A stretch of 64,000 nt of DNA from Clostridiales bacterium (GTDB taxonomy: Bacteria; Bacillota; Clostridia; Christensenellales; UBA3700). Made by a program: the position numbers and the translations under genes. The stretch spans positions 2,676-66,675 of the forward strand of contig SVHF01000005.1 in assembly GCA_015055975.1 (NCBI GenBank), read 5' to 3'. Positions 13,801-60,080 of this stretch are shown in pieces (position 1 is the stretch's first letter; each line of letters starts with the position of its first letter). Under the pieces are notes generated by a model that ran no database searches, was not told the DNA's origin, and saw only the letters and a list, made by a program, of their open reading frames with translations.

Positions 13801-16649
13801 ATATAGATGAAGTTTTCCAAAAGATAAACGATGCTTTTAATTATTTTGGATACGAATTAGATGATACACAAAAAGGAAATGTAGCCGACGATTATGACTA
13901 TCTATTAAAAGCTTACGATAAATATATCGCAGAAGGAGTTGTAGATTTAATTAAAGATATCGGCAATGTTGAAGATGTAAAGCACACTGATGAATACAAA
14001 GAAAAGATTCAAAAGGCTAGGGATGCATACGATGATTTAACAGATGATCAAAAAGCATATGTTACAAATATTAAAGATTTAGAAGATGCTGAAGATAAAT
14101 ATGCAGCTGAAGGTGTAATCGACGAGATTAACGCAATCGGTGAAGTAGAATTGACTGATGAATCAAAAGAAAAGATTCAAAAGGCGAGAGAAACATATGA
14201 TGCTTTAACAGACGAACAAAAAGATTTAGTTGATGACGATACTTATAAAAAATTAACAGATGCAGAGGCAGAATATTATAGATTAGCAGCTGAATCTGTT
14301 AAAGACATGATTGATGCAATTGGCACTGTTAAGTATCCAACATCAAAAGATGCTATTAAAGCTGCAAGAGATGCATATGATGCTCTAACAGGTGATCAAA
14401 AAGCATTAGTTTCTGAAGAAACATATAACAAACTAGTTGCTGCAGAAAAGGAATACGATAAGCAAGAAGACGATGCAACAAGAACTATTGTTGAAGATGA
14501 AGATTCTGGCGTTGCTGTTGAAACTGATGGCGAAACAGGTATTCCAAGAGATATTGAACTAAGAGTTGAAGTAAGAACAGAAGTTTCTTCTAAAGAAGGT
14601 AAGATTGATATTGATTCAATTCAAGCAAATCTTGCAAAGACACAAAAGATTGCAAAGGTATTTGATGTTAAGTTAATTCAAATCGTTGCAGGCGAAGAAA
14701 AAGAAATTCAACCATCTGACATTAAGCCAGGAATGAAGATTAAGATTCATATGAACATTCCTCAAGGCGTAAACACAAAGGACTTAAAGGTATTGCATAT
14801 CCACGACAATGGTTCTATTGAACTAATCGAAAATGTTGCTATTGATGGCGAGGATGCAATCATTGAAGTTGATTCATTATCTCAATTCGCTTTAGTAGAA
14901 AAAACAGGACATGGATTCTGCATTGGATGGATTTTATTAATCTTTGGAATCCTTGAAATGATTTGGTTAGCTTTATATATCTTGGCAAGATTCGGATTAT
15001 GGAGCAAGTTAGAGTTTATTGCACGCAAGATTAAGACAGCAGGATTCATTAGCTTATTAGTTTCTGATGCATTATTTATCCTTGCGCTAGTTGCTATATG
15101 CTTACATGTATGCGCATTGACAATTATATTCTTTATCTTGTTACTTCTAATGAATATCGCAGTTAGATTATTGTTCTTAGAAGACGTAGGTGTAATTAAA
15201 CTACCAAAATCTAAGAAAGCTCAAGAAAAGGAAAAGGCTCATGAAAAAGCAAAAGCCGATGAAACAGCAAAGGCAAATGCAAAAGATGAGCTTGAAAGAA
15301 AGAAACTTTCAGAATATAAGCATATGAGCAAATGGGGCTTAGAAGCTTCTAAGAAGATTGCAAAAGAAGAAGATGAAAACGGTATTTTGGCTGTAGGTAT
15401 TATCCAAAACAGAAAGGGCAAAGTTTACATGTTCGATCCAAACGGATACGAAGTCACTCCAGGCGATATCGTAGAAATTACAGATTTAGCAGGAGAAAAG
15501 AAAGCTGTAGCTGTTGTAATTGGTAACCATATGGCACCAAAAGAAAGAATAGTAGACCCATTCAAGCCAATTAACTGTGTTCTATACACACAAGATGCTG
15601 CTGCAGAAAAGGAAGCAGAAGAACAATCTCGTAGAGAAGAAGAGGCTCGTATTGCGGCAGAAGAAGCAGCAAAGAAGGAAGCTGAAGAGAAAGCTAGAAT
15701 AGCGGCTGAAGAAGAGGCAAGAAGACAAGCAGAACAAAAAGCGGCCGACGAAGCAGCCCTAAAGGCTGCAGAGGATAGAGCTAAGGCTGAACAAGAAGAG
15801 AAGGCTAGAAGAGAAGCCGAGGCTCTATCTCTAAAGGAAAGTCTTGCTAAAGCAAAGGCTACAGAATCTTCAAATAAGTTCTCTAAAGCTTACATTTGTG
15901 ATTATCTAAGTAAAAAGAGCAATGTGGAAATTAATACTAGAGGTAATTTGACTTCTACTGGATTGCCACTTGCAGATACTCACTATGTGGTTGCAGAAGA
16001 TAAAAAGACATGTTTTATCTATGTTTATGAAACAGAAGGATCAGTAATTATCCTTGGTAAGATGAGTGATGAATATGCAAATACTCTAAAGCCAAATCAT
16101 AAGCAAGTACATCTATCTGCATTCCCTAAGCAAAAGGATACTTGGTATAGCTTGATCTTAGATGATTCATATACAACAGATGATGTAAACAAGATTCTAG
16201 ATGATTTAGTTAACCAAACAAAGCAAGATTTAGGATTGCCATTGGAAGAAGGTATTACTCTAAAAGAATCAATTAAACTTGCTAAAGCAACTACATCATC
16301 TCACAAGTTCACAAAAGCTTATGTATGTGATTATCTAAACACAAAAGAAAACGTAGAAGTAAACACAAGAGGTAACCTAACATCAACAGGTCTTCCACTT
16401 GCAGATACTCACTATGTTGTAAATGGAGATAAGAAAGAATGCTTCGTTTATGTATACGAAACAGAAGGCTCTATCATCTTGCTTGCAAAGATGAAGGAAG
16501 ACTACGCTAAAGAATTACAAAAGAAACATTCTCAAGTACATCTATCTGCATTCCCAAAACAAAAAGATACTTGGTATAGTTTAATCATTGACGATTCATA
16601 TTCTAAAGAAGAATTTGAAAAGATAATTGATGACTTAATTAAAAGATAA
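10827..16649 (+). CDS. Giant membrane-spanning protein: GLUG-like beta-helix, MBG-like, helical repeats, 3 TM, cytoplasmic RicT-like, coiled-coil and 2x YjbR-like domains
   Basis: Start moved to ATG 10827 (SD GGAGG); N-terminal TM; DPYQI..EEL, WTPIG, FKGTFDGNGYTIKGL; repeated (I/V)DAIGxV..ARDAYDALT helices; TM cluster near 14910-15180; duplicated 143-aa C-terminal domain. Confidence 0.85.
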   Translation: MNIKTRNWIFVMILAIVVIASSFMMIQSIEKATNDNVAYADATLRGSGTKVDPYQIGDAEELGAFRDIINGLSAVTEKHAILTKDIVFDTETKWTPIGTDTKPFKGTFDGNGYTIKGLTINADDGERGGLFGNITGGATEDAASIIKNVILEKNGEIGSISVFSDSGSIVGYAYNDYIKIINCHNYLPIYALSTTGGIVGQAGPNTTIEECSNHGDIIAVYTFEGAPRKLGGIVGYANGLAPLSGDITRNVTIKNCYNEGNITGEPYSDTYICQMFGGIAGNVQDYAVISNCFSLGSVTAVIRFEKIQSLFGYVGDLTGDKYTPATAVSISECYYLEGKGTDEKVPAETGSKDAAWFEDESNFDSTKGWDFDTIFEMGATNYPVIRTSRLIIGGHLVGPGSYESPTTTDDSTTPMFEYDIKTNTLILNRFNYDPIRATDKYEYSPYYGYNVEAAIDYVGEDDFTITIADLIDIYNMSYSSNTYDWYGIRSTGKLIIQKQGAFSDYLTLLRIGFESSVVGGAVYDGVGHSSYGIYCEKGIEFKGGSIDIRGGDSVNASRYTDESIGIYSKKDIIVAANTLDSKDLRIKFVARGATQAIKFDDDSDKLTSGCSGIASPYWTGIDEKTTNAVVINKNTAYDNTTLGKDVDSSFTPYRTIFLCGIPIALMPDSKEVFFGDPIPDYTYTAKYMNSSVSTTFKAFLDENFYANSNYNPQTSTVGDKYINMYNKTEGSFSHFVFGYQASGMDSAQDFYVENNRTGTLKVKPSLPQYTEPEAVEGLKYTGQAQALVTAGTVSSAGATMYYSTDDGENWTTTVSTGTNVGTYSVWFKINGGLNYSNVEKTLVSNSISIVANDKAALKAAIDAANEYKNSIADKYATRRTTLEGIINDKDTNVYQNDDVTEAQIAQAITDIENEVKDAKKGIFSDSVDAIGTVTYPTSKDDIDYALSVYDALDDDLKQDTAVVADKAELDKAQEDYFSSIINALKPLEDVKHIDEVFQKINDAFNYFGYELDDTQKGNVADDYDYLLKAYDKYIAEGVVDLIKDIGNVEDVKHTDEYKEKIQKARDAYDDLTDDQKAYVTNIKDLEDAEDKYAAEGVIDEINAIGEVELTDESKEKIQKARETYDALTDEQKDLVDDDTYKKLTDAEAEYYRLAAESVKDMIDAIGTVKYPTSKDAIKAARDAYDALTGDQKALVSEETYNKLVAAEKEYDKQEDDATRTIVEDEDSGVAVETDGETGIPRDIELRVEVRTEVSSKEGKIDIDSIQANLAKTQKIAKVFDVKLIQIVAGEEKEIQPSDIKPGMKIKIHMNIPQGVNTKDLKVLHIHDNGSIELIENVAIDGEDAIIEVDSLSQFALVEKTGHGFCIGWILLIFGILEMIWLALYILARFGLWSKLEFIARKIKTAGFISLLVSDALFILALVAICLHVCALTIIFFILLLLMNIAVRLLFLEDVGVIKLPKSKKAQEKEKAHEKAKADETAKANAKDELERKKLSEYKHMSKWGLEASKKIAKEEDENGILAVGIIQNRKGKVYMFDPNGYEVTPGDIVEITDLAGEKKAVAVVIGNHMAPKERIVDPFKPINCVLYTQDAAAEKEAEEQSRREEEARIAAEEAAKKEAEEKARIAAEEEARRQAEQKAADEAALKAAEDRAKAEQEEKARREAEALSLKESLAKAKATESSNKFSKAYICDYLSKKSNVEINTRGNLTSTGLPLADTHYVVAEDKKTCFIYVYETEGSVIILGKMSDEYANTLKPNHKQVHLSAFPKQKDTWYSLILDDSYTTDDVNKILDDLVNQTKQDLGLPLEEGITLKESIKLAKATTSSHKFTKAYVCDYLNTKENVEVNTRGNLTSTGLPLADTHYVVNGDKKECFVYVYETEGSIILLAKMKEDYAKELQKKHSQVHLSAFPKQKDTWYSLIIDDSYSKEEFEKIIDDLIKR
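15825..16646 (+). repeat. Tandem duplicated ~143-aa C-terminal domain
   Basis: Copies begin at 15825 (LSLKESLAKAKAT) and 16254 (ITLKESIKLAKAT); shared NTRGNLTSTGLPLADTHYVV and HLSAFPKQKDTWYSLI.DDSY. Confidence 0.9.
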
Positions 16650-16673
16650 CACAAAGTTATTTTTATTGGGCAA

Positions 16674-16709
16674 GGGAGCTGCTTTGAGTTAGGGCAGCTC
16701 CCCTATTTT
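16674..16709 (+). terminator. Intrinsic terminator of the giant-protein gene
   Basis: GGGAGCTGC-N11-GCAGCTCCC then CTATTTT. Confidence 0.8.
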
Positions 16710-18299
16710 ATTAGAGATAGAAAGTAAAAAAAATCCTCGACAATATTGAAACATCGAGGTATTCGGCGGAAGGGCGGTGTCCACTTGCGCACTAATGTCT
16801 TTAAAGACATTTCCTCCCGAATCAAGCTTTAGTTTTTCTGTGAATTCTTCTAATTCTTTTTTAGTAAGTTTATTGCCTCTTGGTTTTGTATCATCAGGCC
16901 CATTAAATACAATTACTATTTCGTTGTCATAAACAATAATCACTCTAATAAATGTTCTGATTAATTTTAATCTTGTTTCAGGAGTATCGGTATCAACATC
17001 TAGAATTCGATTGAAAAACTCTAGCACAGATGCTTTAGATATTATTTGTTCAGATGCGCTTTCTTCTTTTGAAATAGCAACATCTATCTTTTCTAATTCT
17101 TCTTCTAGTTCTATTAACTTTGTTTGTGTAGATTTTGTTACAACACCAAGAGATATAGCATTTAACATATTATCTATTGCGTTTTGTGTGGTTTTCTTTC
17201 TTGTGTTTAGCATAGATAATACGATGTTTTCTTTCTTTTGTTTTAAAGAATATTCATATAAGGCATTTGCTAATTTTTCGATTATGTTTTTGTTTTTTAA
17301 TGAATTATACAAAACATCTGCAACTAAATCTTCAAGCTTTTCTTTTGGGATAGATTTGTTATGGCATCCTTTATGATAAGGCGCTGTTGATCTACAAGAA
17401 TAATAATGGTATTTTCTTCCTGTGCAGCTAGTGCTAGTTGCTCCTATTAATGGGGAATTACAATTGCCACAATATACCAATCCATTAAGCAAATAATCAT
17501 AGATGTTGTATCTATCTCCATGAGCTTCTACATTTCTTTCGTGAATAGCATTAACTGTATTCCATAATGAATCATCAATAATCTTTGGATATATATTAGT
17601 GTAAACAGTACCATCATTTTCCCATTTGCCATTGTATTTGCTATTGCATAAGGTTTTATAAATCATCTTCTTATAGAATGGTTTGCCAGTCTTTGTTCTA
17701 TATCCTTGAGCATTTAATTCATTTGCGATATGCTCAGCGGTATATCCATCTTTATACATTTCAAACATCTTCTTAACAACTTGCGCTTCAAGCGGATTAA
17801 TGACGCATTTTTGATTAACAATGTCATAACCATATAATTGCGCTCCGCCAGTAAATAATCCTTTGCTATAAGACAATTTCAAGCCACGTTTAACCTTTTG
17901 AGAAAGCTCAGCAGAGTAGTATTGGGCAAAACCTTCTAAAACAGATTCGAAAATAATAGCTTCTGGAGTATCTGGAATGTTTTCGGTTGCAGATATAACT
18001 TTTATGCCATTTTGTTTTAGAGTATGCTTGTGTACTGCTGAATCATATTTGTCTCTAGAAAATCTATCTAACTTATATACTAAGATATAATCCCATTGTT
18101 TACGAACACATTCTTTCATCATAAGTTGAAAAGAAGGTCTAGCATCATTTGTTCCAGATTTTGCACGATCAATATATTCTTTTACAACAGTGATGTCATT
18201 TCGTTTAGCATATTCATAGCAAACACGTAATTGACCTTCAATAGATTGTTCTGTTTGAGAACTACAAGAGAATCTTGCGTATATAACAGCTTTCTTCAT
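16689..18299 (-). CDS. Large serine recombinase (integrase)
   Basis: AVIYARFS (catalytic Ser), SIEGQ, RPSFQ, LVYKLDRFSR; recombinase domain; Zn ribbon VYCGNC...YYSC...C; coiled coil. Confidence 0.95.
   Translation of the reverse strand: MKKAVIYARFSCSSQTEQSIEGQLRVCYEYAKRNDITVVKEYIDRAKSGTNDARPSFQLMMKECVRKQWDYILVYKLDRFSRDKYDSAVHKHTLKQNGIKVISATENIPDTPEAIIFESVLEGFAQYYSAELSQKVKRGLKLSYSKGLFTGGAQLYGYDIVNQKCVINPLEAQVVKKMFEMYKDGYTAEHIANELNAQGYRTKTGKPFYKKMIYKTLCNSKYNGKWENDGTVYTNIYPKIIDDSLWNTVNAIHERNVEAHGDRYNIYDYLLNGLVYCGNCNSPLIGATSTSCTGRKYHYYSCRSTAPYHKGCHNKSIPKEKLEDLVADVLYNSLKNKNIIEKLANALYEYSLKQKKENIVLSMLNTRKKTTQNAIDNMLNAISLGVVTKSTQTKLIELEEELEKIDVAISKEESASEQIISKASVLEFFNRILDVDTDTPETRLKLIRTFIRVIIVYDNEIVIVFNGPDDTKPRGNKLTKKELEEFTEKLKLDSGGNVFKDISAQVDTALPPNTSMFQYCRGFFLLSISNKIGELP
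16726..16759 (-). terminator. Probable native tRNA-Ser terminator, now separated from the tRNA by the element
   Basis: Minus strand CCTCGA-TGTTTCAATATTG-TCGAGG-A-T8, 5 nt beyond the att core on the host side. Confidence 0.65.
16765..16794. other. Recombinase-proximal att junction
   Basis: Core GGCGGA (16765-16770) shared with the tRNA-Ser 3' end; element-side arm carries GCGCACTA (16787-16794), the inverse of TAGTGCGC at the other junction. Confidence 0.75.
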
Positions 18300-18330
18300 T
18301 TATTATTCATTTCTCCTTAGTATGTAATAT

Positions 18331-18611
18331 TTGTCTTTCGACACCTTCGAAAAATCAAAAAGGAATGAATTGGTCAAGGGGTAAAAGAGACTGAACCTTT
18401 ACCAAAAAGGGAATTTTTGATACCCACTTTTCGAAAGACAATTTGATGCTAGCATGTGAAAGGGTGAGATTGCGTGGTAGTAAATGGGGAGTAGAGGTGA
18501 GTAGAATAGTGGTGGATAGCGATAAGTGCACTAAAAGTATACCTAAATCTCACCTTTACCTCACCTTTGTACCCATTTGTCTCACTTTTACTCCCCCGAA
18601 AACTCACCTTT
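18331..18611. repeat. Structured intergenic region with nested inverted repeats and CTCACCTTT iteron-like repeats
   Basis: TTGTCTTTCGA (18331)/TCGAAAGACAA (18431) with inner arms; CTCAC(C/T)TTT at 18549, 18560, 18581, 18603; inverted GGTGAG copies near 18463 and 18496. Confidence 0.7.
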
Positions 18612-18665
18612 AAAACCTATATATTAAATATGGCAATTGACGTTGCTAAAAATAATAGGAGGTCA

Positions 18666-19433
18666 ATGATGGGTGGTAATGCTATACAAATAGTTGAAAG
18701 GCAAAAGAAAAAAGAAGAAAGACGTAAGAAATGGCTTGAATATATTCTTCAAGAATCTATGCATGCTGCAAAAAGTATTGGGGATGTAGATTTAAGAATA
18801 TTATGTGTAAAGACAATGCTTATTGAAAAAGGTATGAAAGATATAGATGCAGATGTAGCAGCTAAATGTGCTATATATAAGCAAGAAAAAGAAAGAACTA
18901 AAAGACGGTTAACTTTTTGTAAACATAGATATTTAGAAGAGTTCAATTATTATGCAACATTTACTTATGATGAAAACAAGTTAAGTGAGAAAAGATTTAA
19001 AAGAAAGTTATTAAGAAAACTAAAGGGATTTTCAAAGCGAAAAGGATGGAAATATTTAGGAGTATGGGAAAGAACAAAAGAATCTAAAAGATTGTATTTC
19101 TATGGTCTTGTATATATTCCAGATAAAAAGCTTGTTGGAAAATTCATAAAAGTAAACGATTTTAATTTCAAAGCGCATAAGCCTAAAGAGGTCATACAAA
19201 ACACATATTTCAATAAAAAGTTTGGACGATGTACATTTGAAGAAATAAACGCTCAATATTTGCCTAAGACTATGGTAAGAATGGTAAAGCATTTAATGGA
19301 TGCAAAAGATAGCCCTGTATCTTCAAAGAATATCCCAAGCTCAACATTAAATGATCTAAGCTATACAACATTTAAATGTTTAAAAGAAGGGGATGAATAT
19401 ATAGGGCAATTAGAAAAGCGTTTTAAATGCTAA
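18666..19433 (+). CDS. Rolling-circle Rep (HUH)-like protein with degenerate catalytic motifs
   Basis: SD AGGAGG before ATG 18666; YYATFTYD (motif I), KYLGVWER..KRLYFYG (motif II with H to Y), NTYFNKKFGR, MVRMVKHL where YxxKY is expected. Confidence 0.65.
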   Translation: MMGGNAIQIVERQKKKEERRKKWLEYILQESMHAAKSIGDVDLRILCVKTMLIEKGMKDIDADVAAKCAIYKQEKERTKRRLTFCKHRYLEEFNYYATFTYDENKLSEKRFKRKLLRKLKGFSKRKGWKYLGVWERTKESKRLYFYGLVYIPDKKLVGKFIKVNDFNFKAHKPKEVIQNTYFNKKFGRCTFEEINAQYLPKTMVRMVKHLMDAKDSPVSSKNIPSSTLNDLSYTTFKCLKEGDEYIGQLEKRFKC

Positions 19434-19450
19434 ATATTTAAATATATATT

Positions 19451-19969
19451 CTCGTATCAAGACAAGCGACACGCCCATCACCACTTGGAGGTAAAAATGA
19501 AATTTAAAGAGAAACTTATTAAAGCAAAAAAATGGTTAAAAGAACAACAAAAAGAATATGATGAAGGATTACTTCGAAGATACAATCGAGGCTATGTTGA
19601 AAGTAGGAACATGAATTGGTTTGAATTACATAGAGCAAAGAAACTTGCAAGAAGAGAATTCAGACAACAACTAAAAGTCTTATTTAAAGATATGGCAAAA
19701 GATATTAAAGACGTATGGAAACATCGGAAAGGTAAATAACTACTTGTATCAAGACTAGCACGCGCACTAAATGATTTTGCGAAATCCCGACTAAATATTT
19801 AATCGACTCAACCCATACCTAAAACAAAAAGAATAGATATAGAGCGCGAAAGTGGAAAAAAGGCTTTTCTACTCGCGTCTCCTACACCCAGGGCGAGCGA
19901 GAAATTTAGCGGGACGCGTGCTTGTCGACGACGAGCGAAGCGAGGCGCTTGTATCAAGACAAGCACACG
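19451..19969. repeat. Three copies of GTATCAAGAC in hairpins (minus strand TCTTGATAC), candidate double-strand origins
   Basis: Exact 10-mer at 19454, 19746, 19951; third copy in perfect stem GCTTGT-N6-ACAAGC; further hairpins at 19842-19880 and GTGCTTGTC/GACAAGCAC. Confidence 0.75.
19497..19739 (+). CDS. Small basic hypothetical protein (80 aa)
   Basis: SD GGAGGT before ATG 19497; K/R-rich helical sequence lying between repeat copies 1 and 2. Confidence 0.65.
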   Translation: MKFKEKLIKAKKWLKEQQKEYDEGLLRRYNRGYVESRNMNWFELHRAKKLARREFRQQLKVLFKDMAKDIKDVWKHRKGK

Positions 19970-20049
19970 TCTCATTACCATTTGATTTAGATATCGTAAA
20001 AATCGAGACTCATCGATGCTAATTGTTGGTTGGGTTTGTAAACACCATG

Positions 20050-20124
20050 TAAGTGTATAAAATATACAGTTATTGTTGACTTGAAATAAATAGAGTGTTA
20101 ATATAAGTGTATAAAATATACAGT
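20050..20124 (+). promoter_or_regulatory. Promoter flanked by a 21-bp direct repeat operator
   Basis: TAAGTGTATAAAATATACAGT at 20050-20070 and 20104-20124, each with palindrome TGTATA-AAA-TATACA; TTGACT-17-TAATAT between them. Confidence 0.75.
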
Positions 20125-20133
20125 AGGTGTAAT

Positions 20134-21282
20134 ATGCTAAAGAAACTTGTAATTAAAAATGTTAATTCAATTAAAAAATGTGAAATAGATTTTGTGAAAG
20201 GCAATTATAAATTTGCAGAAGAAAATGTGCATAATGGAGTTGTTAATCCTATAGCTATTTATGGTCATAATGGTAGCGGTAAATCTGCTGTTATGAATGC
20301 AATAGGTCATTTTGTTGCATTAATGTCATATCCTGCTGAGTCGTTAGCTCCTTTCACTGTTAATCAAATATTGTTTGATGAATATACCTTAGAAGTGGCA
20401 AAAAATTCAAGCAAGATAATTGCTAGTATTCAATTGCTATTTGATATTGACCACGATGAATATGAGTATTATATCGAGACAAGTGCGCTTGGTTATATTA
20501 CAAATGAATATTTGAAAAAGAATGGCATATGTTATTTTGAAAGAGATAAAGAAAAATTTAGTTATGAAGATAAAGAGTCAAAGATTTCTAATATTTCAAG
20601 ATTAATTCCTCAATTAAGATCATTGGCAAGTTCTGAGATTAATGATGCGACTATACAAGTTGTGTATGCATACATTAGTTCAATTACATTTGTAAACTTA
20701 CCATATATTAATAGAGGCGCTTTTGTAACTTCAAAATTGTTTTTAAATACAAACATTAATGATTTGTTAGTACAAAAATCTAAGACAATTAGAGATATGT
20801 TATCAGAAGACAATTGCTTCCCAAGGTATACAATTGAAAAGAACAATAAAATTTTTCCAAACGGTTTGCAAGCATCGCAATATAGCCTTGTGTTAGAAGA
20901 TAAAGATTTTAAAAAGAAATTGCCTTTAGAGATGATATCTGTCGGCATGAAGAATTTAAGCATATTGCTTTCTTTGTTACTTTCTGTTCCAAAGAATGGT
21001 GTAGTCTTTATTGATGAGGTTGACGCAGCTTTGCATCCTTCAACTTTAAATATGTTCTTAAAAATTATTAGGAAAAACAGTATACAAGTAGTTTTTACAA
21101 TACATAATACAAATGCATTGCAATCTATGAGGCCAGATCAAGTGTATTTTGCGAAATGGGCAAAAGGCTTTTCTAATTATTATAGATTATCAAAGATATA
21201 CCCAAATATTCGAGAAATTAATAATATAGAAAAGATGTACTTATCTTCAACTTTTGATGAGGAAATGAAAGAAGATGAGTAA
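20134..21282 (+). CDS. ABC-type ATPase (AAA_21/AAA_15-like), AbiL/RloA-like component
   Basis: Walker A GHNGSGKS, signature ISVGMK, Walker B FIDEVDAALHP, H-loop FTIHN; start at MLKKLVIKN. Confidence 0.85.
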   Translation: MLKKLVIKNVNSIKKCEIDFVKGNYKFAEENVHNGVVNPIAIYGHNGSGKSAVMNAIGHFVALMSYPAESLAPFTVNQILFDEYTLEVAKNSSKIIASIQLLFDIDHDEYEYYIETSALGYITNEYLKKNGICYFERDKEKFSYEDKESKISNISRLIPQLRSLASSEINDATIQVVYAYISSITFVNLPYINRGAFVTSKLFLNTNINDLLVQKSKTIRDMLSEDNCFPRYTIEKNNKIFPNGLQASQYSLVLEDKDFKKKLPLEMISVGMKNLSILLSLLLSVPKNGVVFIDEVDAALHPSTLNMFLKIIRKNSIQVVFTIHNTNALQSMRPDQVYFAKWAKGFSNYYRLSKIYPNIREINNIEKMYLSSTFDEEMKEDE

Positions 21283-22054
21283 AAACTATTTGCTTATAGT
21301 TGAGGGAAAGAAAACGGAGCCCAATGTATTTGAATGCGCATTTGAGCGGTATGGTTTTCGCGTTGAAAAAGGTAAAGAGCCGTTAAACATAACTGATGTT
21401 GGGCAATTTGAAAAAATTGAGTTTTCTTTAAATCAAAACAATGTGGTAATTATTCAAGGACCTAGAAATAGAATACATGATTTTTTATTACTTATAGAAA
21501 ATGAAGATGTAGTTGTAGAAAAGTTGTTTAAGTATCAATATGCGTTCTTTAATTCAATTTTCTTAATATATGATGTTGATCATAATGATTGTGAAGATAT
21601 TGAAAAAATGTTTAATTATTTTAACGATGAAACGACGTCTGGTTTATTACTATTAAGTTCTCCTTGTATTGAGGTATTAGAAGACTATAATAGAGAAAGG
21701 CGTGAAGAGACTTATCATAAAATAGAAGAATATAAAAAAGATATAAATATATATTGGAATGGGCTTGCGCAAGATAATCTATTAGCTAATTTTGAAAGCA
21801 CGATGTTACATTTTTTAGAAAAGAATCAAAAAGATTTTGCTGAAAACAACATAATGGAACATCCAAGACTTATTATAGATAAAATCAATAAGTTAAATGA
21901 GAGGGTTAATTGTTCGGATAAAGAAAAGTCTTATGTAAGATATAGATATTTTTCTACAGTAGTATATGTCGCAATAGCAAATGCTAATGGATTGACAAAA
22001 GAAATTGATAACTATTCAAAGGCATGTGAGTTCTTTGAGAACAAAAAGCAATAA
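21275..22054 (+). CDS. RloB-like TOPRIM-domain protein
   Basis: LIVEGKKTE, IFLIYDVD (DxD), SSPCIE motif; overlaps the ATPase stop by 8 nt. Confidence 0.7.
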   Translation: MSKNYLLIVEGKKTEPNVFECAFERYGFRVEKGKEPLNITDVGQFEKIEFSLNQNNVVIIQGPRNRIHDFLLLIENEDVVVEKLFKYQYAFFNSIFLIYDVDHNDCEDIEKMFNYFNDETTSGLLLLSSPCIEVLEDYNRERREETYHKIEEYKKDINIYWNGLAQDNLLANFESTMLHFLEKNQKDFAENNIMEHPRLIIDKINKLNERVNCSDKEKSYVRYRYFSTVVYVAIANANGLTKEIDNYSKACEFFENKKQ

Positions 22055-22176
22055 AATTTTTGTTTGTATAATTTAATCTTTTGACTTTTCGGAGAAGGTT
22101 CTTGTTGATTTTTTTTAGATTAATATTGAATTTATATCTGGATCTTTGACATAATAATATTAAAGGAACTAAACAT

Positions 22177-22584
22177 ATGACTATAGGTGAAAAGATTAAA
22201 CAATTGCGTATATCAAAAGGGTTATCTGTTTCTGAATTTGCACAACAAATCGAAGTAACAGAGCGGACTATTTATAGATGGGAAAGCAATAAAAATATCC
22301 CATCTAATTCATATTTAGCGAAAATAGCAATTTCCTGCGATGTCAAGATAGATTATTTCAAAAGTGAAAAAGCAAAATTGTCTATCGTCAAGCTATTATC
22401 TATAATCTCAATAGTTATTCTTTCTTTATTAACATTAATATCGTTAATAGGGTTTATAGCATATTTGGCCACAGGGCAAAGAGTTTTATTTGGTCTATCT
22501 TTTGATTTTATTATAGCAATGCTAATATTTTCTTTTAGCCTTTTATCTTTTGCAATAGTGTTTTTGTCTTTAAATAAATACTAA
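22177..22584 (+). CDS. XRE-family HTH regulator with two C-terminal TM helices
   Basis: IGEKIKQLRISKGLS..EFAQQIEVTERTIYRWESNKNIP followed by two hydrophobic segments. Confidence 0.88.
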   Translation: MTIGEKIKQLRISKGLSVSEFAQQIEVTERTIYRWESNKNIPSNSYLAKIAISCDVKIDYFKSEKAKLSIVKLLSIISIVILSLLTLISLIGFIAYLATGQRVLFGLSFDFIIAMLIFSFSLLSFAIVFLSLNKY

Positions 22585-22596
22585 TTGTCTTAAAAA

Positions 22597-22644
22597 GTCA
22601 TGAAATGTCACGAAATGTCAGTAGATAAATTATATATAATGTCA
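22597..22644 (+). promoter_or_regulatory. Phased (T)GTCA repeats upstream of the cargo operon
   Basis: GTCA at 22597, 22607, 22617 (10-bp period, GAAATGTCA twice) and AATGTCA at 22638. Confidence 0.5.
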
Positions 22645-22672
22645 TAATCTTTTAGTAGGAGGTTATGATATT

Positions 22673-23398
22673 ATGAAAAATAAATTATTTATTATTTTGA
22701 TGCTTATTTTGACGATTTGTGTTTCAACAGCATATGTAACATCAATTGCTTATGCGGAAAGCACAAATAGTGAAGAGGCTTTTAGTAGTGACCCAACAAT
22801 AGTACATCTTTCAGATGATTATCAAGGATGGAATAATTCGTCGCGTTGGTATTCTCAGCCATTATGGTATTGCGATAATAATTCATATTCGCCAACATCA
22901 CATGATTACAAATATTGCGAATATAATACTTCTGTAATAAGCAATTTGCCGTACTATAAAGTAATGGCAACTGATAGTTATGAAACTATAGAATTGTCGC
23001 AAGTTGAGACTCTTTCGTCTCCGGATAATAGTGAAACAAACTCTGGTGTATTTGTTACATTCCAAAGCAATAACATTTCATATGCTTCGGGAATATATTT
23101 GAATGGAGATGAATACATATTAGGAGCATTAACTTCAGAATTGCAAATATTCGGCTCTACGACAAAGGTTGGAGCTGGAAAAGTGTTATATAGACAAGGG
23201 GCTTTAGTGAACGGCGGTACTTGGGGAGGTTGGTCATACGCTGATTTAGGGACTAATACTTCAATTTATTTTCCAGCTAATGTTGCTGTTCAATTGGCTG
23301 TTATTTATGAGGTTAAAGAAGAAAAATTACATTGGTATCAAAGTCATAAATATTATAGATGCTTGGGATACTATAGATTTAACACGGGAGTTGTTTAA
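22673..23398 (+). CDS. Secreted hypothetical protein (Tyr/Trp/Ser rich)
   Basis: SD AGGAGG, signal peptide ending AYA-E, no recognised domain. Confidence 0.75.
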   Translation: MKNKLFIILMLILTICVSTAYVTSIAYAESTNSEEAFSSDPTIVHLSDDYQGWNNSSRWYSQPLWYCDNNSYSPTSHDYKYCEYNTSVISNLPYYKVMATDSYETIELSQVETLSSPDNSETNSGVFVTFQSNNISYASGIYLNGDEYILGALTSELQIFGSTTKVGAGKVLYRQGALVNGGTWGGWSYADLGTNTSIYFPANVAVQLAVIYEVKEEKLHWYQSHKYYRCLGYYRFNTGVV

Positions 23399-24312
23399 TG
23401 TTAGAATTGATAAAACAAAACAAGAATAAACTTACTTGCATCCTAATAGCATTTGTCACAATTATAGCAATTGTTCTTTTGTTATTAGGCAGTCAAACTT
23501 ATACAACGAATTCAGATGATGATTCATCTATTGATTCATATAAAGTCCTATATGAAGAAGCGAAAATGAATTATGAGTGCAAAATTGGAATAAGAGAGTG
23601 GCCTGCCGGTGTTATGCAAGATCCAAAAATGACAGCTAAAGATTATGAAGCGAAAATGAATTATTATGAAGAATTAATGGATAATAATATTTCTAAATCA
23701 GATTATTTTAATATAGATAATCCTCTGCAAAATAAAGAAACAATGAGGCATGCAACAATAGGATATATGATGTTATATATCATGAGCTTTTTTGTTATAA
23801 TTGCAGCGCTTAGCATTCCTTATGTTTTTGCTAATGACGATAAGCATAGCAAATTAGTAGCATTAGGAGCTTCATATTGTAGTGTATTTGTTTTGAATTT
23901 AATAGTGTTCATCTTTGGTATTCCATTTGTGTTAAATAATATGTCAGCGCCAGTAATTCAGCAGTTTGGAATAAATACAATTACAACAACGATATCTATA
24001 TATTATTTTGTTAGAGCATTGGGATTGTTGTGTATATCTCTCTTAATGTGCACAATAGGAAGTATTATTGCGAATGCAAGAAAGATGAGCTTCGCTAAAT
24101 ATTTATCTGTATTTATGACATATTTCATTTTCTGTATTCCATTTGTTTTAGAGTTGGGATTAAAGTCTAACAATTATGCAATTATTCCTATTACGCATAT
24201 ACAATTTGCAAACAATATAATAAATAATCCGATTTATTGGATTGGCGTTATTATATGCATTATGTTGGGAATATGTTATTATGCATGTTTGAGGTTTAGA
24301 AAGCAATTATAA
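23398..24312 (+). CDS. Multi-pass membrane protein, ABC-2 permease-like topology
   Basis: TM1, ~85-aa extracellular loop, five further TM; TAATG-coupled to the upstream gene. Confidence 0.65.
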   Translation: MLELIKQNKNKLTCILIAFVTIIAIVLLLLGSQTYTTNSDDDSSIDSYKVLYEEAKMNYECKIGIREWPAGVMQDPKMTAKDYEAKMNYYEELMDNNISKSDYFNIDNPLQNKETMRHATIGYMMLYIMSFFVIIAALSIPYVFANDDKHSKLVALGASYCSVFVLNLIVFIFGIPFVLNNMSAPVIQQFGINTITTTISIYYFVRALGLLCISLLMCTIGSIIANARKMSFAKYLSVFMTYFIFCIPFVLELGLKSNNYAIIPITHIQFANNIINNPIYWIGVIICIMLGICYYACLRFRKQL

Positions 24313-24390
24313 ATATGTTTAGCTATATTAAATCGGAGGTGGTGCTAAAAATAATAAGAATCAACAACATAATAGATTAGGAGGTTATTT

Positions 24391-25758
24391 ATGAATAAAA
24401 GTAGACAAAAAATCAAATTAGTTGCAATCACTAGCATTTTGCTCTTAGCATTAATCGCAGTAGCAGGAGCGACTTTAATATTAGGCATAACAATGCAAAA
24501 GGCTCAGCATAACATAGAATCGTTTAATTCGGACCCAATTGCTTCATATGAGAAAACATACTGTGAAGAGTTAATGTCATATAAATTGGATCAAAATTAT
24601 ATCTGTACTTTAACAAAAGAAGTATATGATTTTTCTGGCAATGCAAATTATATGCTTTGTTATGATGAAAATTTAAATTGGTATGCGATAATAAATAGAA
24701 CAAGCGGTGATGTTTTAGAACGAAAAGAATCAAAATCCCCATATAATGATTATTTGGAATACAAGTGTTTCTATTTGGGATATGGTAATTATTACTTTTT
24801 AGAAGGCAATAGGATTGTTTCTATTATGGATACAACTACTATATTTGAAGCAGATGATATCCCACAAGAGCTTATTGAAGGATCTATAAATCTAAACAAC
24901 AAAGCGATCACCGATGGAACTTTTAAATCTAGGGAAGAGATAGAAGAATTTGTAAAAGAGCAAGAAAAATCTATTGTTTCGTTATGTGGAGCATCAAATA
25001 GAAATAATACACATTATTGTGACAATCTATTGTATTTTTTAGAAATGTGCAACGCTTTAGTGCCAAAACGATTTGTAATCTCGACTGAACCATATTATGT
25101 TACGATTGGCTGTGGGACTTTTACAAGATATAATGGGGCTCAATATGATGATATTTTGTTTGCAAAAAATACAACAGGAACATGTGGAATAGTATCTTCT
25201 GCAATGCTATTACAGTATTATGAAAGAAATGGGATATTAAACGTTATTCCAAATAGTATATATAACAATAGTATAATTAGTTTTCCTTCTGGTTCAACAG
25301 TGTCAAGTGTTGGCTTAGAGTATACCGTTGCCCAAAAAGTTCATAATGCAATAAATGCTCATCATAGTGAGATTTTGGGAGGTTCTACTTATGTATCGGC
25401 AAAAGATGCAATAAATGGGTATTTCTCAACATACGGGATAACTGGAGTTAGTGCATCGTCAAACGTTTTAGATGCTGGCATGAAGTCCACAATTAACAAT
25501 GGAGATCCAGTAGTAGTATTTATAAGTGGAGGAACAGGATATAGCGCTTATATTGATTCTAGTAGCAATAATTATTATTCGGAGTATATTAGCTCACATG
25601 CAATGTTAGCATTTGGGTACACAACTGGGTTATTCGGACTGGTTGATGAGTATATTTGCAATAAAGGATGGCCAGAAGCGTATAATAATTACTATACATA
25701 TGGCGTAACATACATTTCGCACATTTCTATCGTGGGTAATGTAAAATTATTATATTAA
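24391..25758 (+). CDS. Secreted or membrane-anchored papain-fold cysteine peptidase (C10/C39-like)
   Basis: N-terminal TM, prodomain-like region, N..GTCGIVSSAMLLQY (Cys), SHAMLAFGY (His), ICNKGW (as in streptopain-like NxGW). Confidence 0.7.
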   Translation: MNKSRQKIKLVAITSILLLALIAVAGATLILGITMQKAQHNIESFNSDPIASYEKTYCEELMSYKLDQNYICTLTKEVYDFSGNANYMLCYDENLNWYAIINRTSGDVLERKESKSPYNDYLEYKCFYLGYGNYYFLEGNRIVSIMDTTTIFEADDIPQELIEGSINLNNKAITDGTFKSREEIEEFVKEQEKSIVSLCGASNRNNTHYCDNLLYFLEMCNALVPKRFVISTEPYYVTIGCGTFTRYNGAQYDDILFAKNTTGTCGIVSSAMLLQYYERNGILNVIPNSIYNNSIISFPSGSTVSSVGLEYTVAQKVHNAINAHHSEILGGSTYVSAKDAINGYFSTYGITGVSASSNVLDAGMKSTINNGDPVVVFISGGTGYSAYIDSSSNNYYSEYISSHAMLAFGYTTGLFGLVDEYICNKGWPEAYNNYYTYGVTYISHISIVGNVKLLY

Positions 25759-25768
25759 GGAGAACGCT

Positions 25769-26248
25769 ATGAGGAAGCATAAATATATAATAATTGCAGT
25801 CGTTGCCATTGTTGTTTTGATTGTTATTGCGTTTCTTGTTAATTTGTGTTTATTTAATGCGCTTAAAAACAATAAAGTAAACATCCTTGAACAGCATGGT
25901 GTGAAAACTACAGAAATCCTAAAACTTGAAAAATTAGAGCATTCGCCGGAGCAGCAGTATTTGAAATATACAACATTTTGCTCTAAAACAAAATTTATGT
26001 ATGGAATATATTCGTTGGGATATAAGGTACATTGTTTATATGATGATGGTAACAAACAGATTGAATATGACCTATATGAAGTAGATTGGGCTAGAACGTA
26101 TGCAGAAGATGAATCATTTTATATTTTTTCGGCAGAAACCTTGTTTGAAACAAAGCATATTTTAGTATTAGATAAAAGCGACAAGGATAATTTGGAACTA
26201 GTTTGGCGAGATTTGGGGTTGTTAATTGATTATCAATTTGCCCTATAG
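25769..26248 (+). CDS. Single-pass membrane hypothetical protein
   Basis: SD AAGGAG, N-terminal TM, 10 nt after the peptidase stop. Confidence 0.7.
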   Translation: MRKHKYIIIAVVAIVVLIVIAFLVNLCLFNALKNNKVNILEQHGVKTTEILKLEKLEHSPEQQYLKYTTFCSKTKFMYGIYSLGYKVHCLYDDGNKQIEYDLYEVDWARTYAEDESFYIFSAETLFETKHILVLDKSDKDNLELVWRDLGLLIDYQFAL

Positions 26249-26349
26249 AGCAGTAGTAGATTGTCAAATCAAGTGCAATCTTGGTTATGTATAAGTCACT
26301 AAAGAAAAATATAATTGATTTGATATATCAAAGACAATAGAGCACTAAA

Positions 26350-26389
26350 GATAGAGCCAACTCAGTTTAAATATTGAACTGGCTCTATC
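26350..26389 (+). terminator. Hairpin after the cargo operon
   Basis: GATAGAGCCA (26350) / TGGCTCTATC (26380); weak T tail. Confidence 0.45.
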
Positions 26390-26502
26390 AATTTACGCGA
26401 CTCTAGCTAGTCCACCTCTATATTTTATTCTTTTGATGAAATCTTTTTGTATTTTAATGAATTAAAAGAAGTCGAAAATTAGTTTATATTATGCAATTAG
26501 TT

Positions 26503-26531
26503 AAAAAGAAAATAGAGTACAAAGTACTCTA
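26503..26531 (-). terminator. Element-borne terminator (serves tRNA-Ser when integrated, recombinase when excised)
   Basis: Minus strand TAGAGTAC-TTT-GTACTCTA-TTTTCTTTTT. Confidence 0.7.
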
Positions 26532-26580
26532 CTTTTCAAAGATTAGTCTCAAAGCAAAACTGTTTTTATATACTAACCAA

Positions 26581-26607
26581 TAGTGCGCTTGAGACCCTTG
26601 TGGCGGA
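26581..26607. other. tRNA-proximal att junction
   Basis: TAGTGCGC (26581-26588) and core GGCGGA (26602-26607) overlapping the tRNA acceptor end. Confidence 0.75.
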
Positions 26608-26691
26608 GAGTGCGAGATTTGAACTCGCGCTACGGTTTCCCGTACTACACCCTTAGCAGGGGCGCCCCTTCGGCCTCTTGGGTAACTCTCC
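26601..26691 (-). tRNA. tRNA-Ser(GCT)
   Basis: GGAGAGT...ACTCTCC-G-CCA, anticodon loop CT-GCT-AA, long variable arm, GTTCAAATC T-arm. Confidence 0.97.
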
Positions 26692-58696: not shown

Positions 58697-59092
58697 ATGA
58701 ATAAAAAAATCTTAGCAATTAGCGTTGCAATATTGTTGCTTATTACGAGCGTTTTATTAATTGCATGTGCAAAAATTAGTGATGATCCAAAAGAACAAGC
58801 AAAGTCTTTAGAAGATAAAGGTTGCACTGTTAGTGTTCTTGATTCTGAAGAAGCATTAAAAGAACAAACTGAATATTTAGAAAGTAATGGCATAATCGTA
58901 TTTAATGACATTCAAGCAGTACTAGTAATCAAGAAAGATAGTGACACGGGATATATCTATTATATGGGTAGTATTTCAGATGCAGAAAGATTAATGGATG
59001 GCTTGTCATTCTTGGGAGATTATGAATCAAATATGCAATCAACTAATATTGTATACTTTGGATCAAAAGCTATTTATGATTTAATGAAATAG
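58697..59092 (+). CDS. Lipoprotein, unknown function
   Basis: Lipobox LIA-C. Confidence 0.75.
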   Translation: MNKKILAISVAILLLITSVLLIACAKISDDPKEQAKSLEDKGCTVSVLDSEEALKEQTEYLESNGIIVFNDIQAVLVIKKDSDTGYIYYMGSISDAERLMDGLSFLGDYESNMQSTNIVYFGSKAIYDLMK

Positions 59093-59110
59093 CGCTAAGG
59101 AACAAAATTA

Positions 59111-59148
59111 AAGTGAGTCTCAAATCCGTTTGAGATTCACTTTTTTTT
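59111..59148 (+). terminator. Intrinsic terminator
   Basis: AAGTGAGTCTCAAA-TCCG-TTTGAGATTCACTT then T run. Confidence 0.88.
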
Positions 59149-59318
59149 GTGGCGCTATGAATTTTACACAAAAGCTTTAAAACAAGAATTTACTTTTGCA
59201 AATTTTTTTTGGACTTCCGCTTTATACTGGAATTTGCTTTTACAATTAACTTGCTTATCAGTTTTGCAAATAAACCATTGAGAAAAACAAAAAAAACAAA
59301 TATAATAGTATTACTATT

Positions 59319-60080
59319 ATGGAATTTGGGTTTATAAGCGGAGATTTTCATACACACACTGTTTTTTCTCACGGAAAAGGCACAATTGAGCAAAATGTTC
59401 AAGAAGCAATAAAGCGTGGGCTTAAAGCTATTGCTATAACTGACCATGGATTTGGTCAACCTTTTGCAGGTATTACTCCTAAATCTTTTGAAATAATGAA
59501 AACACAAGTTGCAGATCTTCGAATTAAATATCCGGAGATTAGAATATTGCTTGGTGTTGAAGCAAATATTATTAAAAAAGATGGAACAATCGATTTAACA
59601 GATGAGCAAGAAAAACAAATGGATATTATTTTAGCTGGATATCATTTATCTGCTACAAAAAGAACTGTCCCAAGTCTATTAAGCCTTGCTGTGCCTGCGG
59701 TATTTGCTCAAATGGGAGTTTGTTCAAAAGGGCAGAAAAGACGCAATACAAAGACATATTTAGACGCCGTAAAGAAAAGAAAGATTGATGTTATAACTCA
59801 CCCTGGATATTTAATGCCAATAGATTATGTTGAGCTTGGGAAAGCGTGCGCAGATTTAGGAACTTATTTAGAGATTTCGTCACGCCATGTTATTCCAAAC
59901 GAAAGAGGACTTGAAGAGCTATTAAAAACGGATGTTAAGTTTATTATCAATTCTGATGCGCATGAATTGTATCAAATAGGGCATGTGAATTATGCACTAA
60001 GATTGATTGATAAATATCATATAGAAGATAGAGTTGTTAATCTAAATTCAATAGATTTTCCATTGAGGTCTAAATCTTAA
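59319..60080 (+). CDS. PHP domain phosphoesterase
   Basis: DFHTHT, ITDHG, GVEAN, THP, NSDAH. Confidence 0.88.
   Translation: MEFGFISGDFHTHTVFSHGKGTIEQNVQEAIKRGLKAIAITDHGFGQPFAGITPKSFEIMKTQVADLRIKYPEIRILLGVEANIIKKDGTIDLTDEQEKQMDIILAGYHLSATKRTVPSLLSLAVPAVFAQMGVCSKGQKRRNTKTYLDAVKKRKIDVITHPGYLMPIDYVELGKACADLGTYLEISSRHVIPNERGLEELLKTDVKFIINSDAHELYQIGHVNYALRLIDKYHIEDRVVNLNSIDFPLRSKS

Follow-up and report, generated by a model that had tools for sequence, protein, structure and literature searches.

A putative helper-dependent rolling-circle origin with two half-sites beside a catalytically dead Rep paralogue in a chromosomal island of a gut Clostridiales bacterium

Introduction

In the 64,000-nucleotide (nt) stretch of a Clostridiales bacterium studied here (assembly GCA_015055975.1, contig SVHF01000005.1, positions 2,676 to 66,675; below, the window), a short motif, GTATCAAGAC, is repeated three times next to the gene of Rep*, a paralogue of rolling-circle initiator (Rep) proteins, inside an island with defence-like cargo. 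We propose that the three motifs carry the nick-and-bind core of a rolling-circle double-strand origin (dso), of which one copy here is complete and two are truncated; such origins would be served by a widespread family of Reps, Pfam PF23343 (gene-II/ORF2-like HUH enzymes with two tyrosines) in gut Christensenellales-type Clostridia. The complete copy, copy 3, would be fired only in trans and the island would be a helper-dependent, satellite-like element, with Rep* as a regulator or competitor and the two half-sites in an auxiliary role. On balance we lean towards this account as a whole. The window is contig C37 of the source genome G000, which has 1.59 Mb in 42 contigs and comes from faecal metagenomes.

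Results

One complete origin-like element and two right-half sites

The exact motif GTATCAAGAC starts at 19454, 19746 and 19951, always on the + strand and in direct orientation, with spacings of 292 and 205 nt; an earlier sequence-only reading of this DNA had reported these positions and spacings together with a minus-strand CTTGATA, and the sequence confirms them. With at most one mismatch, the motif has 10 matches in the window against 3.1 expected, a count reached in 0 of 100 shuffles, and elsewhere in the genome GTATCAAGACWAGC is present in only two copies, both beside an active Rep paralogue on contig C33. A repeat finder delimits units of 22-37 nt at 19451-19487, 19743-19764 and 19948-19984. 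Copy 1 starts 18 nt after the stop codon of the Rep-like gene (19433) and copy 2 starts 4 nt after that of an open reading frame (ORF) of 80 amino acids (aa; stop at 19739), again in agreement with the earlier description.

Inverted repeats embed copy 3 only (arms 19913-19926 and 19958-19971). Copies 1 and 2 do not have both arms and represent right halves, made of the core and the 3' arm, with the further 3' flank kept in copy 1 and gone in copy 2. What had been taken for three nick-site hairpins is accordingly one hairpin element, and the several equivalent start/stop origins once envisaged give way to one complete origin and two right-half sites. The A-type (copy-1-type) site has one G more than the B-type (copy-3-type) site, and among 74 genomes of the family the A-type 21-mer is confined to the source genus. 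The features of the interval are:

18666-19433, + strand: Rep*, a PF23343-type Rep paralogue of 255 aa, predicted to be catalytically dead
19451-19487, + strand: copy 1, a right-half site with the core CTCGTATCAAGAC and the full 3' flank, without 5' arm or inner hairpin
19497-19739, + strand: 80-aa basic orphan ORF between copies 1 and 2, with a strong GGAGG ribosome-binding site
19743-19764, + strand: copy 2, a degenerate right-half site with the core CTTGTATCAAGAC followed by a fast-changing 3' part
19765-19912, + strand: structured spacer between copies 2 and 3, with a long hairpin at about 19842-19881 and a TAGCGG apex at 19907-19912
19913-19984, + strand: copy 3, the complete origin-like element, defined by inverted repeat, covariation and conservation
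19913-19926, + strand: 5' arm of copy 3, GACGCGTGCTTGTC, in a 14-bp outer stem
between the 5' arm and the unpaired CTTGTATCAA, + strand: inner hairpin of copy 3 with a GCGAAGC mini-hairpin tip
19948-19957, + strand: unpaired CTTGTATCAA of copy 3
19958-19971, + strand: 3' arm of copy 3, GACAAGCACACGTC
up to 19984, + strand: conserved 3' flank of copy 3, TCATTACCATTTG

Copy 1 comes straight after the stop codon of Rep* and reaches up to the ribosome-binding site in front of the 80-aa ORF; it is immediately preceded by a promoter-like TTTAAA-17-TATATT (19422-19450). The spacer 19765-19912 folds as DNA with z = -4.7 on the + strand and z = -4.2 on the - strand, and it is a candidate single-strand origin (sso) and/or packaging signal. 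A small stem with CTTGAT in its loop had also been described in copy 3: on the + strand GCTTGT and ACAAGC can indeed pair around ATCAAG, but this is not a conserved structure. Among 31 related origins that stem is perfect in 18 and has a central C.A mismatch in 13, with no compensatory change, and it is an alternative pairing of the 3' arm.

A conserved origin family linked to active Reps

According to our analysis copy 3 is a bona fide member of a family of origins, whose complete sites have the consensus order GCGTGTGCTTGTC, inner hairpin, (A)CT(T/C)GTATCAA and GACAAGCACACGC. Over 31 distinct sites 88% of the cells in the 14-bp outer and 8-bp inner helices are paired, and 9 pairs have changed on both sides (40 cells), which was matched by 0 of 500 shuffles; slid registers pair at 17-51%. 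The inner hairpin carries a GC-GNA-GC tip in 55 of 71 origins, and mini-hairpins of the d(GCGAAGC) type are very stable. The 18-nt core GTATCAAGACAAGCACAC, with at most one mismatch, was found in 41 of the 401 genomes and 26 of the 173 genera of the order (one match for the reversed control), and the pattern of 5' arm plus hairpin in 48 of the 401. A scan for the core over 2.9 million IMG/VR contigs returned one genuine locus and one chance match inside a Clp-like gene.

Rep homologues are present in 22 of 61 relatives. With a conserved 706-aa ATPase as bait we obtained 80 loci, from Christensenellaceae and other Clostridia among gut metagenome-assembled genomes, in which a Rep follows directly after the ATPase in 78 and a full origin is found in 54. 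The origin is on the strand of the Rep in 53 of these 54, at a median of 192 nt (range 144-400) after an intact PF23343 Rep; the corresponding distance is 480 nt after the dead paralogue in the window and 315 nt after the active Rep on C33. Both the fixed place and orientation by the Rep gene and the nick region in a conserved hairpin or cruciform, as expected of a dso, are thus seen for copy 3, and copies 1 and 2 are without the arms. The sequence-only reading had named a lack of conservation beside homologous Reps as its refutation; the origin-like motif proved to be conserved beside active homologues, in this genome and across the order.

Two variations within the family deserve a mention. 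In L090 (at about 1508, after the Rep) and L091 (at about 5240), both with an active Rep, the core of the full origin has changed to GTATAAGAGAC and the half-site keeps GTATCAAGAC, the two sites of one element differing exactly at the presumed nick region. A second Rep clade, of 300-330 aa (L011, L016, L018-L021, L023, L026, L032, L034-L036), has another hairpin, GTCAAGGGTAAAGTGCATTGC...GCAACCCTTGAC, right after the stop, and an origin variant with the core CTTGTCTATG lies about 0.8-1.4 kb upstream of the Rep in inverted orientation.

A co-resident element with an active Rep

The helper Rep invoked by the sequence-only reading has a potential counterpart in the same cell. Contig C33 of the same genome encodes, at 58829-59755, an intact PF23343 Rep (motifs RLHFH and YIMKYISK), 32% identical to Rep*, with a copy-1-type unit of 37 nt right after its stop and a hairpin-embedded copy-3-type unit 286 nt further. 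When the island was compared with the genome by BLAST, only two patches of about 70 nt in this interval matched C33, at 94% (A) and 92% (B), and no other similarity exists between the intergenic regions of the window and C33.

The C33 element is integrated and about 17 kb long (C33:55578-72291 of G000; locus L008 covers 52000-66000). Its order is serine recombinase, about 10 kb of membrane and secreted proteins, the 706-aa ATPase, Rep, the two sites and cargo. Besides small regulatory genes it encodes a 516-aa lipoprotein-like, a 113-aa OB-like and membrane or secreted proteins of 351, 199, 662, 140 and 41 aa; the cargo is an N6-methyltransferase with two HsdS-like genes, and PcfJ/PcfK genes adjoin the element. 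The ATPase, with N-terminal transmembrane helices followed by a P-loop domain, always precedes the Rep, and its family counts at least 165 loci in public genomes. A Foldseek search of the PDB with its AlphaFold model, built on 43 sequences and of limited quality (pLDDT 65 overall, poor core), came back empty. In the relatives L090 and L230, whose Reps are 94-97% identical to that of C33, one half-site after the Rep accompanies the origin.

A dead but selected Rep paralogue

Rep* matches PF23343 weakly (Rep ORF2/G2P; E = 1e-4, below the family cutoff). In alignment with its homologues RLHFH has become RLYFY, the HUH motif thus reading YFY, Y(I/L)xKY has become MVKHL, and the N-terminal motif YPxxKxYxDGSHYIAIP of the homologues is missing. 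In the window, P0121, G005 and L096 alike, none of the four catalytic residues (two HUH histidines, two tyrosines) has been kept. To judge from these residues Rep* cannot be a nuclease, and with their loss the island would be unable to nick its own origin and probably depends on a related active element in the genome.

For selection we compared the window with the sister species G005 and the metagenome contig L096 (synonymous divergence, dS, of about 0.09, that is about 9% diverged). Between the window and L096, 12 of 24 substitutions in Rep* are non-synonymous against 81% expected (omega 0.20, p = 5e-4), and the ORF is intact in every copy found; near-identical sequences are the only such homologues, the lineage being rare. 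Rep* does not appear to be a pseudogene and bears the mark of purifying selection. The 80-aa ORF, which is missing from the C33, L090 and L230 elements, shows an omega of about 0.2-0.3 over few changes (p = 0.07), a weak sign of constraint, and searches of 5.8 billion plus 1.8 billion proteins gave no homologues beyond copies 92-93% identical.

Among the same three sequences no change at all is seen in 163 nt, made of 63 nt around copy 1 (19434-19496) and 100 nt ending in copy 3; here 19876-19912 too is unchanged. The spacer 19765-19875 varies, as does the 3' part of copy 2, which differs in all three, and the core of copy 2 is invariant. From this pattern copies 1 and 3 are constrained, and copy 2 at most in its 13-nt core. 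In the spacer hairpin 19842-19881 G005 and L096 have C where the window has T, so that G-C replaces a G.T pair, and the loop differs as well, consistent with selection on the fold. The number of sites is less stable: three in the window and G005 and four in L096, where a fourth copy sits on an extra 57-nt unit at the copy-2 position, bounded by CTTG|TATC; close relatives overall have 2, 3 or 4.

Which strand is nicked

The minus strand reads TCTTGATAC (CTTGATA) in all copies and the + strand site reads CTTGTATCAAG; CTTG is present on both strands because the core is the palindrome CTTG-TAT-CAAG. CTTG^ATA is the nick consensus of pC194- and phiX174-type Reps, and the nick had been assigned to the minus strand in the sequence-only reading. 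That assignment is not supported by the strand-specific features, which sit on the + strand. A GNA loop with flanking G.A pairs is more stable on the top (+) strand in 55 of 71 origins, and the long hairpin between Rep and origin has a [TC]AGCG apex on the top strand in 25 of 48 relatives as against 1 of 48 on the bottom strand (TAGCGG in the window). A comparable sequence, the CS-6 motif TAGCGT, is conserved in ssoA single-strand origins (PMC4598088). The fixed orientation of the origin relative to the gene block is a third + strand feature.

Since the GNA mini-hairpin, the CS-6-like apex and the orientation to Rep all lie on the + strand, we consider a nick on the + strand, within the unpaired CTTGTATCAA, the more likely, and synthesis would then proceed towards the cargo. 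The half-sites would then stand behind the origin, so that circles of 205, 292 or 497 nt would not be primary products. As to the position of the cut, the left flanks of half-sites suggest CTTG|TATC and the hybrid sites described below break after GAC; no single simple cut fits both.

Half-sites, hybrid sites and mosaic loci

All half-site copies are direct repeats, and their left flanks nearly always end in CTTG or CTCG, next to unrelated DNA. Half-sites recur in the Rep lineage that includes C33. In L091-L094 the recombinase-Rep-origin-cargo layout of the window is seen with an active Rep (56% identical): the serine recombinase is followed by two small genes, the Rep, a hairpin and a half-site, and 75 nt further come the origin and the cargo. 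In L207, of another lineage, a half-site lies 46 nt downstream of the origin. Complete origins without a Rep stand beside serine recombinases in L049, L059, L123 and L075. Cargo bracketed by an origin and a downstream half-site is seen in L075 (7.9 kb, ending at the chromosomal spoIIE) and in L076 (5.8 kb with Shedu, a methyltransferase and AbiEii).

In G005 the module that begins with the N-terminus of the recombinase and includes Rep*, the 80-aa ORF and the origin shows 93% identity to that of the window (99% for Rep*), and it occupies another chromosomal site, with another recombinase C-terminus (only 48% identity overall) and different cargo about 12 nt after copy 3. Four cargos, those of the window, G005, C33 and L230, are joined within 1-3 nt of one point after CATTACCAYT. 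At least seven loci possess hybrid sites, in which left arm, inner hairpin and CT(C/T)GTATCAAGAC are followed by a foreign flank, TGTGACATATTTTTATGGAC, and a conserved downstream module (the hybrid-site loci are L012, L105, L123, L126, L127, L140, L194 and L198). The same foreign flank has its own left part in L141 and L142, and in G024 it comes after a different hairpin and the core ATTTGTCGGTAC, which suggests a second origin class recombining with this one.

Downstream of five hybrid loci, with 13-19 kb of sequence on that side for three, and after the window's own cargo no half-site was found. For six isolated half-sites the search upstream covered 17 kb and revealed neither a full origin nor a Rep nor a recombinase. 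The origin site is clearly a hot spot of recombination; these observations do not establish a clean cassette mechanism.

The island and its genomic context

The following features complete the island:

16689-18299, - strand: large serine recombinase (Pfam Resolvase, Recombinase and Zn_ribbon_recom)
20047-22113, + strand: defence-like cargo cassette, assigned by Pfam, 63 nt after the origin
20134-21282, + strand: AAA_21 ATPase
21275-22054, + strand: RloB-like protein

Downstream of the AAA_21/RloB pair follow a helix-turn-helix gene and further cargo. The hexamer GGCGGA occupies 16765-16770, and its second copy, 26602-26607, falls on the 3' end of a tRNA-Ser gene (26601-26691); the island ends, 16765-26607, were set from this duplication, the same-genus species being too diverged at the DNA level for an empty-site comparison. 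In our reading the island was integrated into tRNA-Ser by its own serine recombinase. The recombinase ORF spans the left attachment core (GGCGGA at 16765-16770), and its last 25 or so codons derive from outside the island.

The AAA_21/RloB cassette recurs at 98.8% identity in the same genome, at C8:79-2145, within an islet (C8:79-2785, corresponding to window 17889-18446 plus 20047-22113) that has a related recombinase and is without 18447-20046, that is without Rep*, the 80-aa ORF and the origin. This second cassette explains a doubled depth over 20096-22113. Two contig joints considered as circle junctions were ruled out: 19487>19918 is the paralogous locus on C33 and 18446>20050 that on C8.

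Between the recombinase and Rep* the window holds, at 18459-18612, an array of CTCAC(C/T)TTT with inverted GGTGAG copies; the array is also found at C33:67511-67614, 2.7 kb from the recombinase, and may be a shared regulatory or iteron-like region. A winged-helix-like gene of 115/116 aa lies between the recombinase and Rep or Rep* in L096 (1951-2298) and L091 (3566-3916). The window has lost this gene, having 48 nt at 18605-18653 against 444 nt.

Discussion

From the analysis above it would be logical to regard copy 3 as a target in trans for an active Rep, either that of the C33 element or one brought in by a relative, and to place the nick on the + strand. The cruciform of copy 3, preceded by an sso-like hairpin, would expose the unpaired CTTGTATCAA as the expected nick place, and copies 1 and 2 would be unable to form such a cruciform. 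This Rep may then drive rolling-circle copying of the excised island and its defence cargo, and with it their spread, much as for a satellite. For Rep*, a role in binding sites and not in cutting them suggests itself naturally: it could sit on copies 1 and 3, leave them uncut and act as regulator or competitor. The half-sites would be auxiliary Rep sites and, in addition, by-products and substrates of Rep-catalysed strand transfer, a proposed origin that would account for their differing number among close relatives. Two hallmarks of a helper-dependent satellite are seen in the island: it has no functional initiator of its own, and its cis site matches that of a co-resident autonomous element.

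Several points weigh against this helper-dependent account. Binding or cutting at these sites by a Rep and any exit of the island from the chromosome are so far predicted from sequence. The contigs assembled from the source metagenomes (Logan; double-stranded DNA libraries, which are unable to show single-stranded circles) contain no circle junction, and in these metagenomes the island depth equals that of the flanks, with no excess. Recent gene conversion, instead of selection for one Rep acting on both, could explain why the sites in the window and on C33 are nearly identical. The promoter and the ribosome-binding site of the 80-aa ORF might account for the conservation of copy 1, whose place after the promoter-like site and against that ribosome-binding site makes an operator role possible. 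Most relatives have a single origin without a half-site, so half-sites are no general requirement of the origin as such. They are also unlikely to be efficient terminators: placed shortly before the origin, an efficient one would, whatever its polarity, keep the active C33 element from making complete progeny strands. Finally, the C33 element may be either virion-forming or conjugative; its 706-aa ATPase and other structural genes have no match in Pfam, PHROGs, NCBIfam or the PDB.

Other explanations of the three copies were considered. If a helper Rep nicked CTTG^ATA on the minus strand of copy 3 and leftward synthesis ended at copy 2 or copy 1, single-stranded circles of 205 or 497 nt would be released, or of 292 nt if copy 2 also fires. 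The minus-strand CTTGATA of all copies, their direct orientation and the phiX-like Y-x-x-K-Y of active relatives speak for such mini-circles. In Ff and in pC194-type plasmids a truncated origin is enough to terminate replication. Moreover, read on the minus strand, the order of full origin, structured hairpin and truncated origin is that of the Ff nanorod/microphage design, which yields 221-nt circles (PMC11962056). As this engineered cassette works, the idea is mechanistically sound, but it needs the minus-strand nick that the strand evidence disfavours: the GNA mini-hairpin with its sheared G.A pairs, the CS-6-like apex and the gene-block orientation point to displacement of the + strand. 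Besides, the same layout in the active C33, L090 and L230 elements would abort each round of replication after 286 nt, and no junction contig was seen, in what is a weak data set for it; we regard mini-circles as unlikely. We find it similarly improbable that the module is itself defence cargo, with Rep* occupying or poisoning the origins of related single-stranded DNA elements in a dominant-negative way, as do Ff gpX or the inactive RepC/RepC* form, and the chromosomal copies perhaps titrating an invader's Rep. A Rep that is dead yet selected, the strict conservation of copies 1 and 3 and the company of defence genes (AAA_21/RloB here; methyltransferase, Shedu and AbiEii in relatives) are in line with interference. 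Yet the layout of half-site plus origin occurs also in elements with an active Rep, so that the sites are no defence invention, and the C33 element, its genes intact, shares the genome with the island. Still less probable, to our mind, is a decaying remnant of a C33-like element, in which the copies are scars of Rep-mediated or slippage events with no present function. It would agree with the loss of the structural genes, of which C33 has about 10 kb between recombinase and Rep, with the sister islet on C8 that is without the module, with the rarity of the Rep* lineage and with the free evolution of the 3' part of copy 2. Against decay stand the purifying selection on Rep*, the 163 unchanged nt around copies 1 and 3 next to a neutral-like spacer, and a module intact in at least three samples or species with differing chromosomal and cargo contexts.

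Transfer offers another possibility, which we hold to be somewhat unlikely: Rep could be relaxase-like, the 706-aa ATPase a coupling-type motor, copy 3 an origin of transfer (oriT) and the island an integrative mobilisable element. This would be compatible with helper-dependence and differ from it only in the transfer route. The membrane-anchored P-loop ATPase that always precedes Rep, the PcfJ/PcfK genes adjoining C33 and the almost complete absence of the family from viral contigs (one true match in IMG/VR) favour it, and integrative mobilisable elements with relaxases of the rolling-circle replication type and serine recombinases are known (PMC5704250). On the other hand, VirB4, VirD4 and other type IV secretion families were not detected, the sso-like hairpin and a small single-strand-binding-like gene fit a replicon that passes through single-stranded DNA, and PF23343 was defined on Reps of filamentous phages and plectroviruses. 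The 13-nt core CTTGTATCAAGAC might also be a recombination joint operated by Rep, at which half-site-bounded single-stranded circles are excised and pasted into other origins, so building and reshuffling defence islands as an HUH analogue of an integron platform, with Rep* bound to the sites as its regulator. Such a joint would explain the 80-aa unit between copies 1 and 2, the 57-nt unit of L096, the bracketed cargo of L075 and L076, the hybrid sites and the four cargos at one joint; we nevertheless consider it quite doubtful. A purely transcriptional role, as terminators after two genes or as ordinary repressor operators, is hardly credible. Stop codons do precede copies 1 and 2, and copy 1 overlaps a promoter-like site before the 80-aa ORF, but a scan of 18250-20250 gave 0 terminator-like sites, with T tracts absent and promoter predictions at chance level, and Rfam has no relevant RNA family in 16000-23000; moreover, the sequence is tied to Rep genes over 26 genera and has a covarying cruciform.

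Among known systems the intergenic region of Ff phages (f1/M13/fd) is close in several respects. The Rep family is named after the gene-II protein and plectrovirus ORF2 (PF23343), after the gene block a nick site carried on a hairpin is directly preceded by structured hairpins of the sso or packaging type, and in the engineered Specthrie microphage cassette a complete origin is likewise combined with truncated direct copies a few hundred nt away. That cassette consists of a full (+) origin, a packaging signal and a truncated (+) origin as terminator, and gives 221-nt circles (PMC11962056); truncated copies in Ff terminate and do not initiate. Unlike Ff, however, the present origin is unrelated in sequence and fold to the GTTCTTT^AATA site, and its truncated copies lack the 5' hairpins and retain the 3' side, the side on which Ff terminators are cut short. 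On the favoured strand these copies are found behind the origin, and the arrangement is natural, chromosomal and accompanied by a dead Rep. With pC194, pUB110 and pMV158 plasmids and phiX174 gpA the locus shares CTTG in an unpaired cruciform stretch and, in its active relatives, HUH and Y-x-x-K-Y motifs, which Rep* of the window does not have (YFY, MVKHL). The division into separate nick and bind regions known from such origins (PMC5714925) applies here as well, and the TAGCG-type apex on a long hairpin by the origin recalls ssoA (PMC4598088). The differences are that CTTGATA is found only on the disfavoured strand, the favoured one reading the palindrome CTTG-TATCAAG, that the Rep family is another one and that a serine recombinase carries out the integration.

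RS1 and TLC-phi of CTX-phi are helper-dependent satellites of filamentous phages. Like these, and like the oriT-mimicking mobilisable islands reviewed in PMC5704250, the present island is a small integrated element with its own integrase and cargo, whose cis site matches a co-resident initiator and which has no working initiator of its own; origin-only, Rep-less relatives exist here too. It differs from the satellites and islands so described by its Gram-positive gut anaerobe host, by a serine recombinase in a tRNA gene and by the selected dead Rep, and transfer or packaging of the island is putative. IS91/ISCR elements and Helitrons also use an HUH two-tyrosine enzyme, and they have ori91/ter91 ends and a CTTG or GTTC target (PMC5714925), to which the CTTG/CTCG left flanks of half-sites beside unrelated DNA and the cargo bounded by full site and half-site in L075 and L076 may be compared. 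Unlike in IS91/ISCR, there are no transposase-like ends, most loci have a single site, integration relies on a serine recombinase, and five hybrid loci, three of which have 13-19 kb of sequence on the downstream side, do not show the half-site predicted there. Non-catalytic initiator derivatives that regulate rolling-circle replication are known as well, namely gpX of Ff and the inactive RepC/RepC* of pT181. Rep* resembles them as a Rep-derived, non-nicking protein kept beside an origin, but it is a separate full-length paralogue, 32% identical and with substituted catalytic residues, neither an internal product nor a spent enzyme.

Rolling-circle origins, truncated-origin terminators and satellites that borrow initiators are all known, almost entirely from Ff and CTX phages and small Gram-positive plasmids. 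The locus described here opens onto a large unannotated Rep-plus-membrane-ATPase family in gut Christensenellales-type Clostridia, with at least 165 ATPase loci and the origin core in about 10% of the genomes of the order, and derivatives of this family keep the origin only, or the origin with a dead, selected Rep, beside a serine recombinase and defence genes. The origin motif is highly conserved and searchable, and can be used as a practical marker of the elements and of their cargo boundaries. If the helper-dependence is true, it would represent a natural case of a non-catalytic HUH protein kept as a site-binding factor, and a route by which anti-phage cargo may pass between uncultured gut anaerobes.

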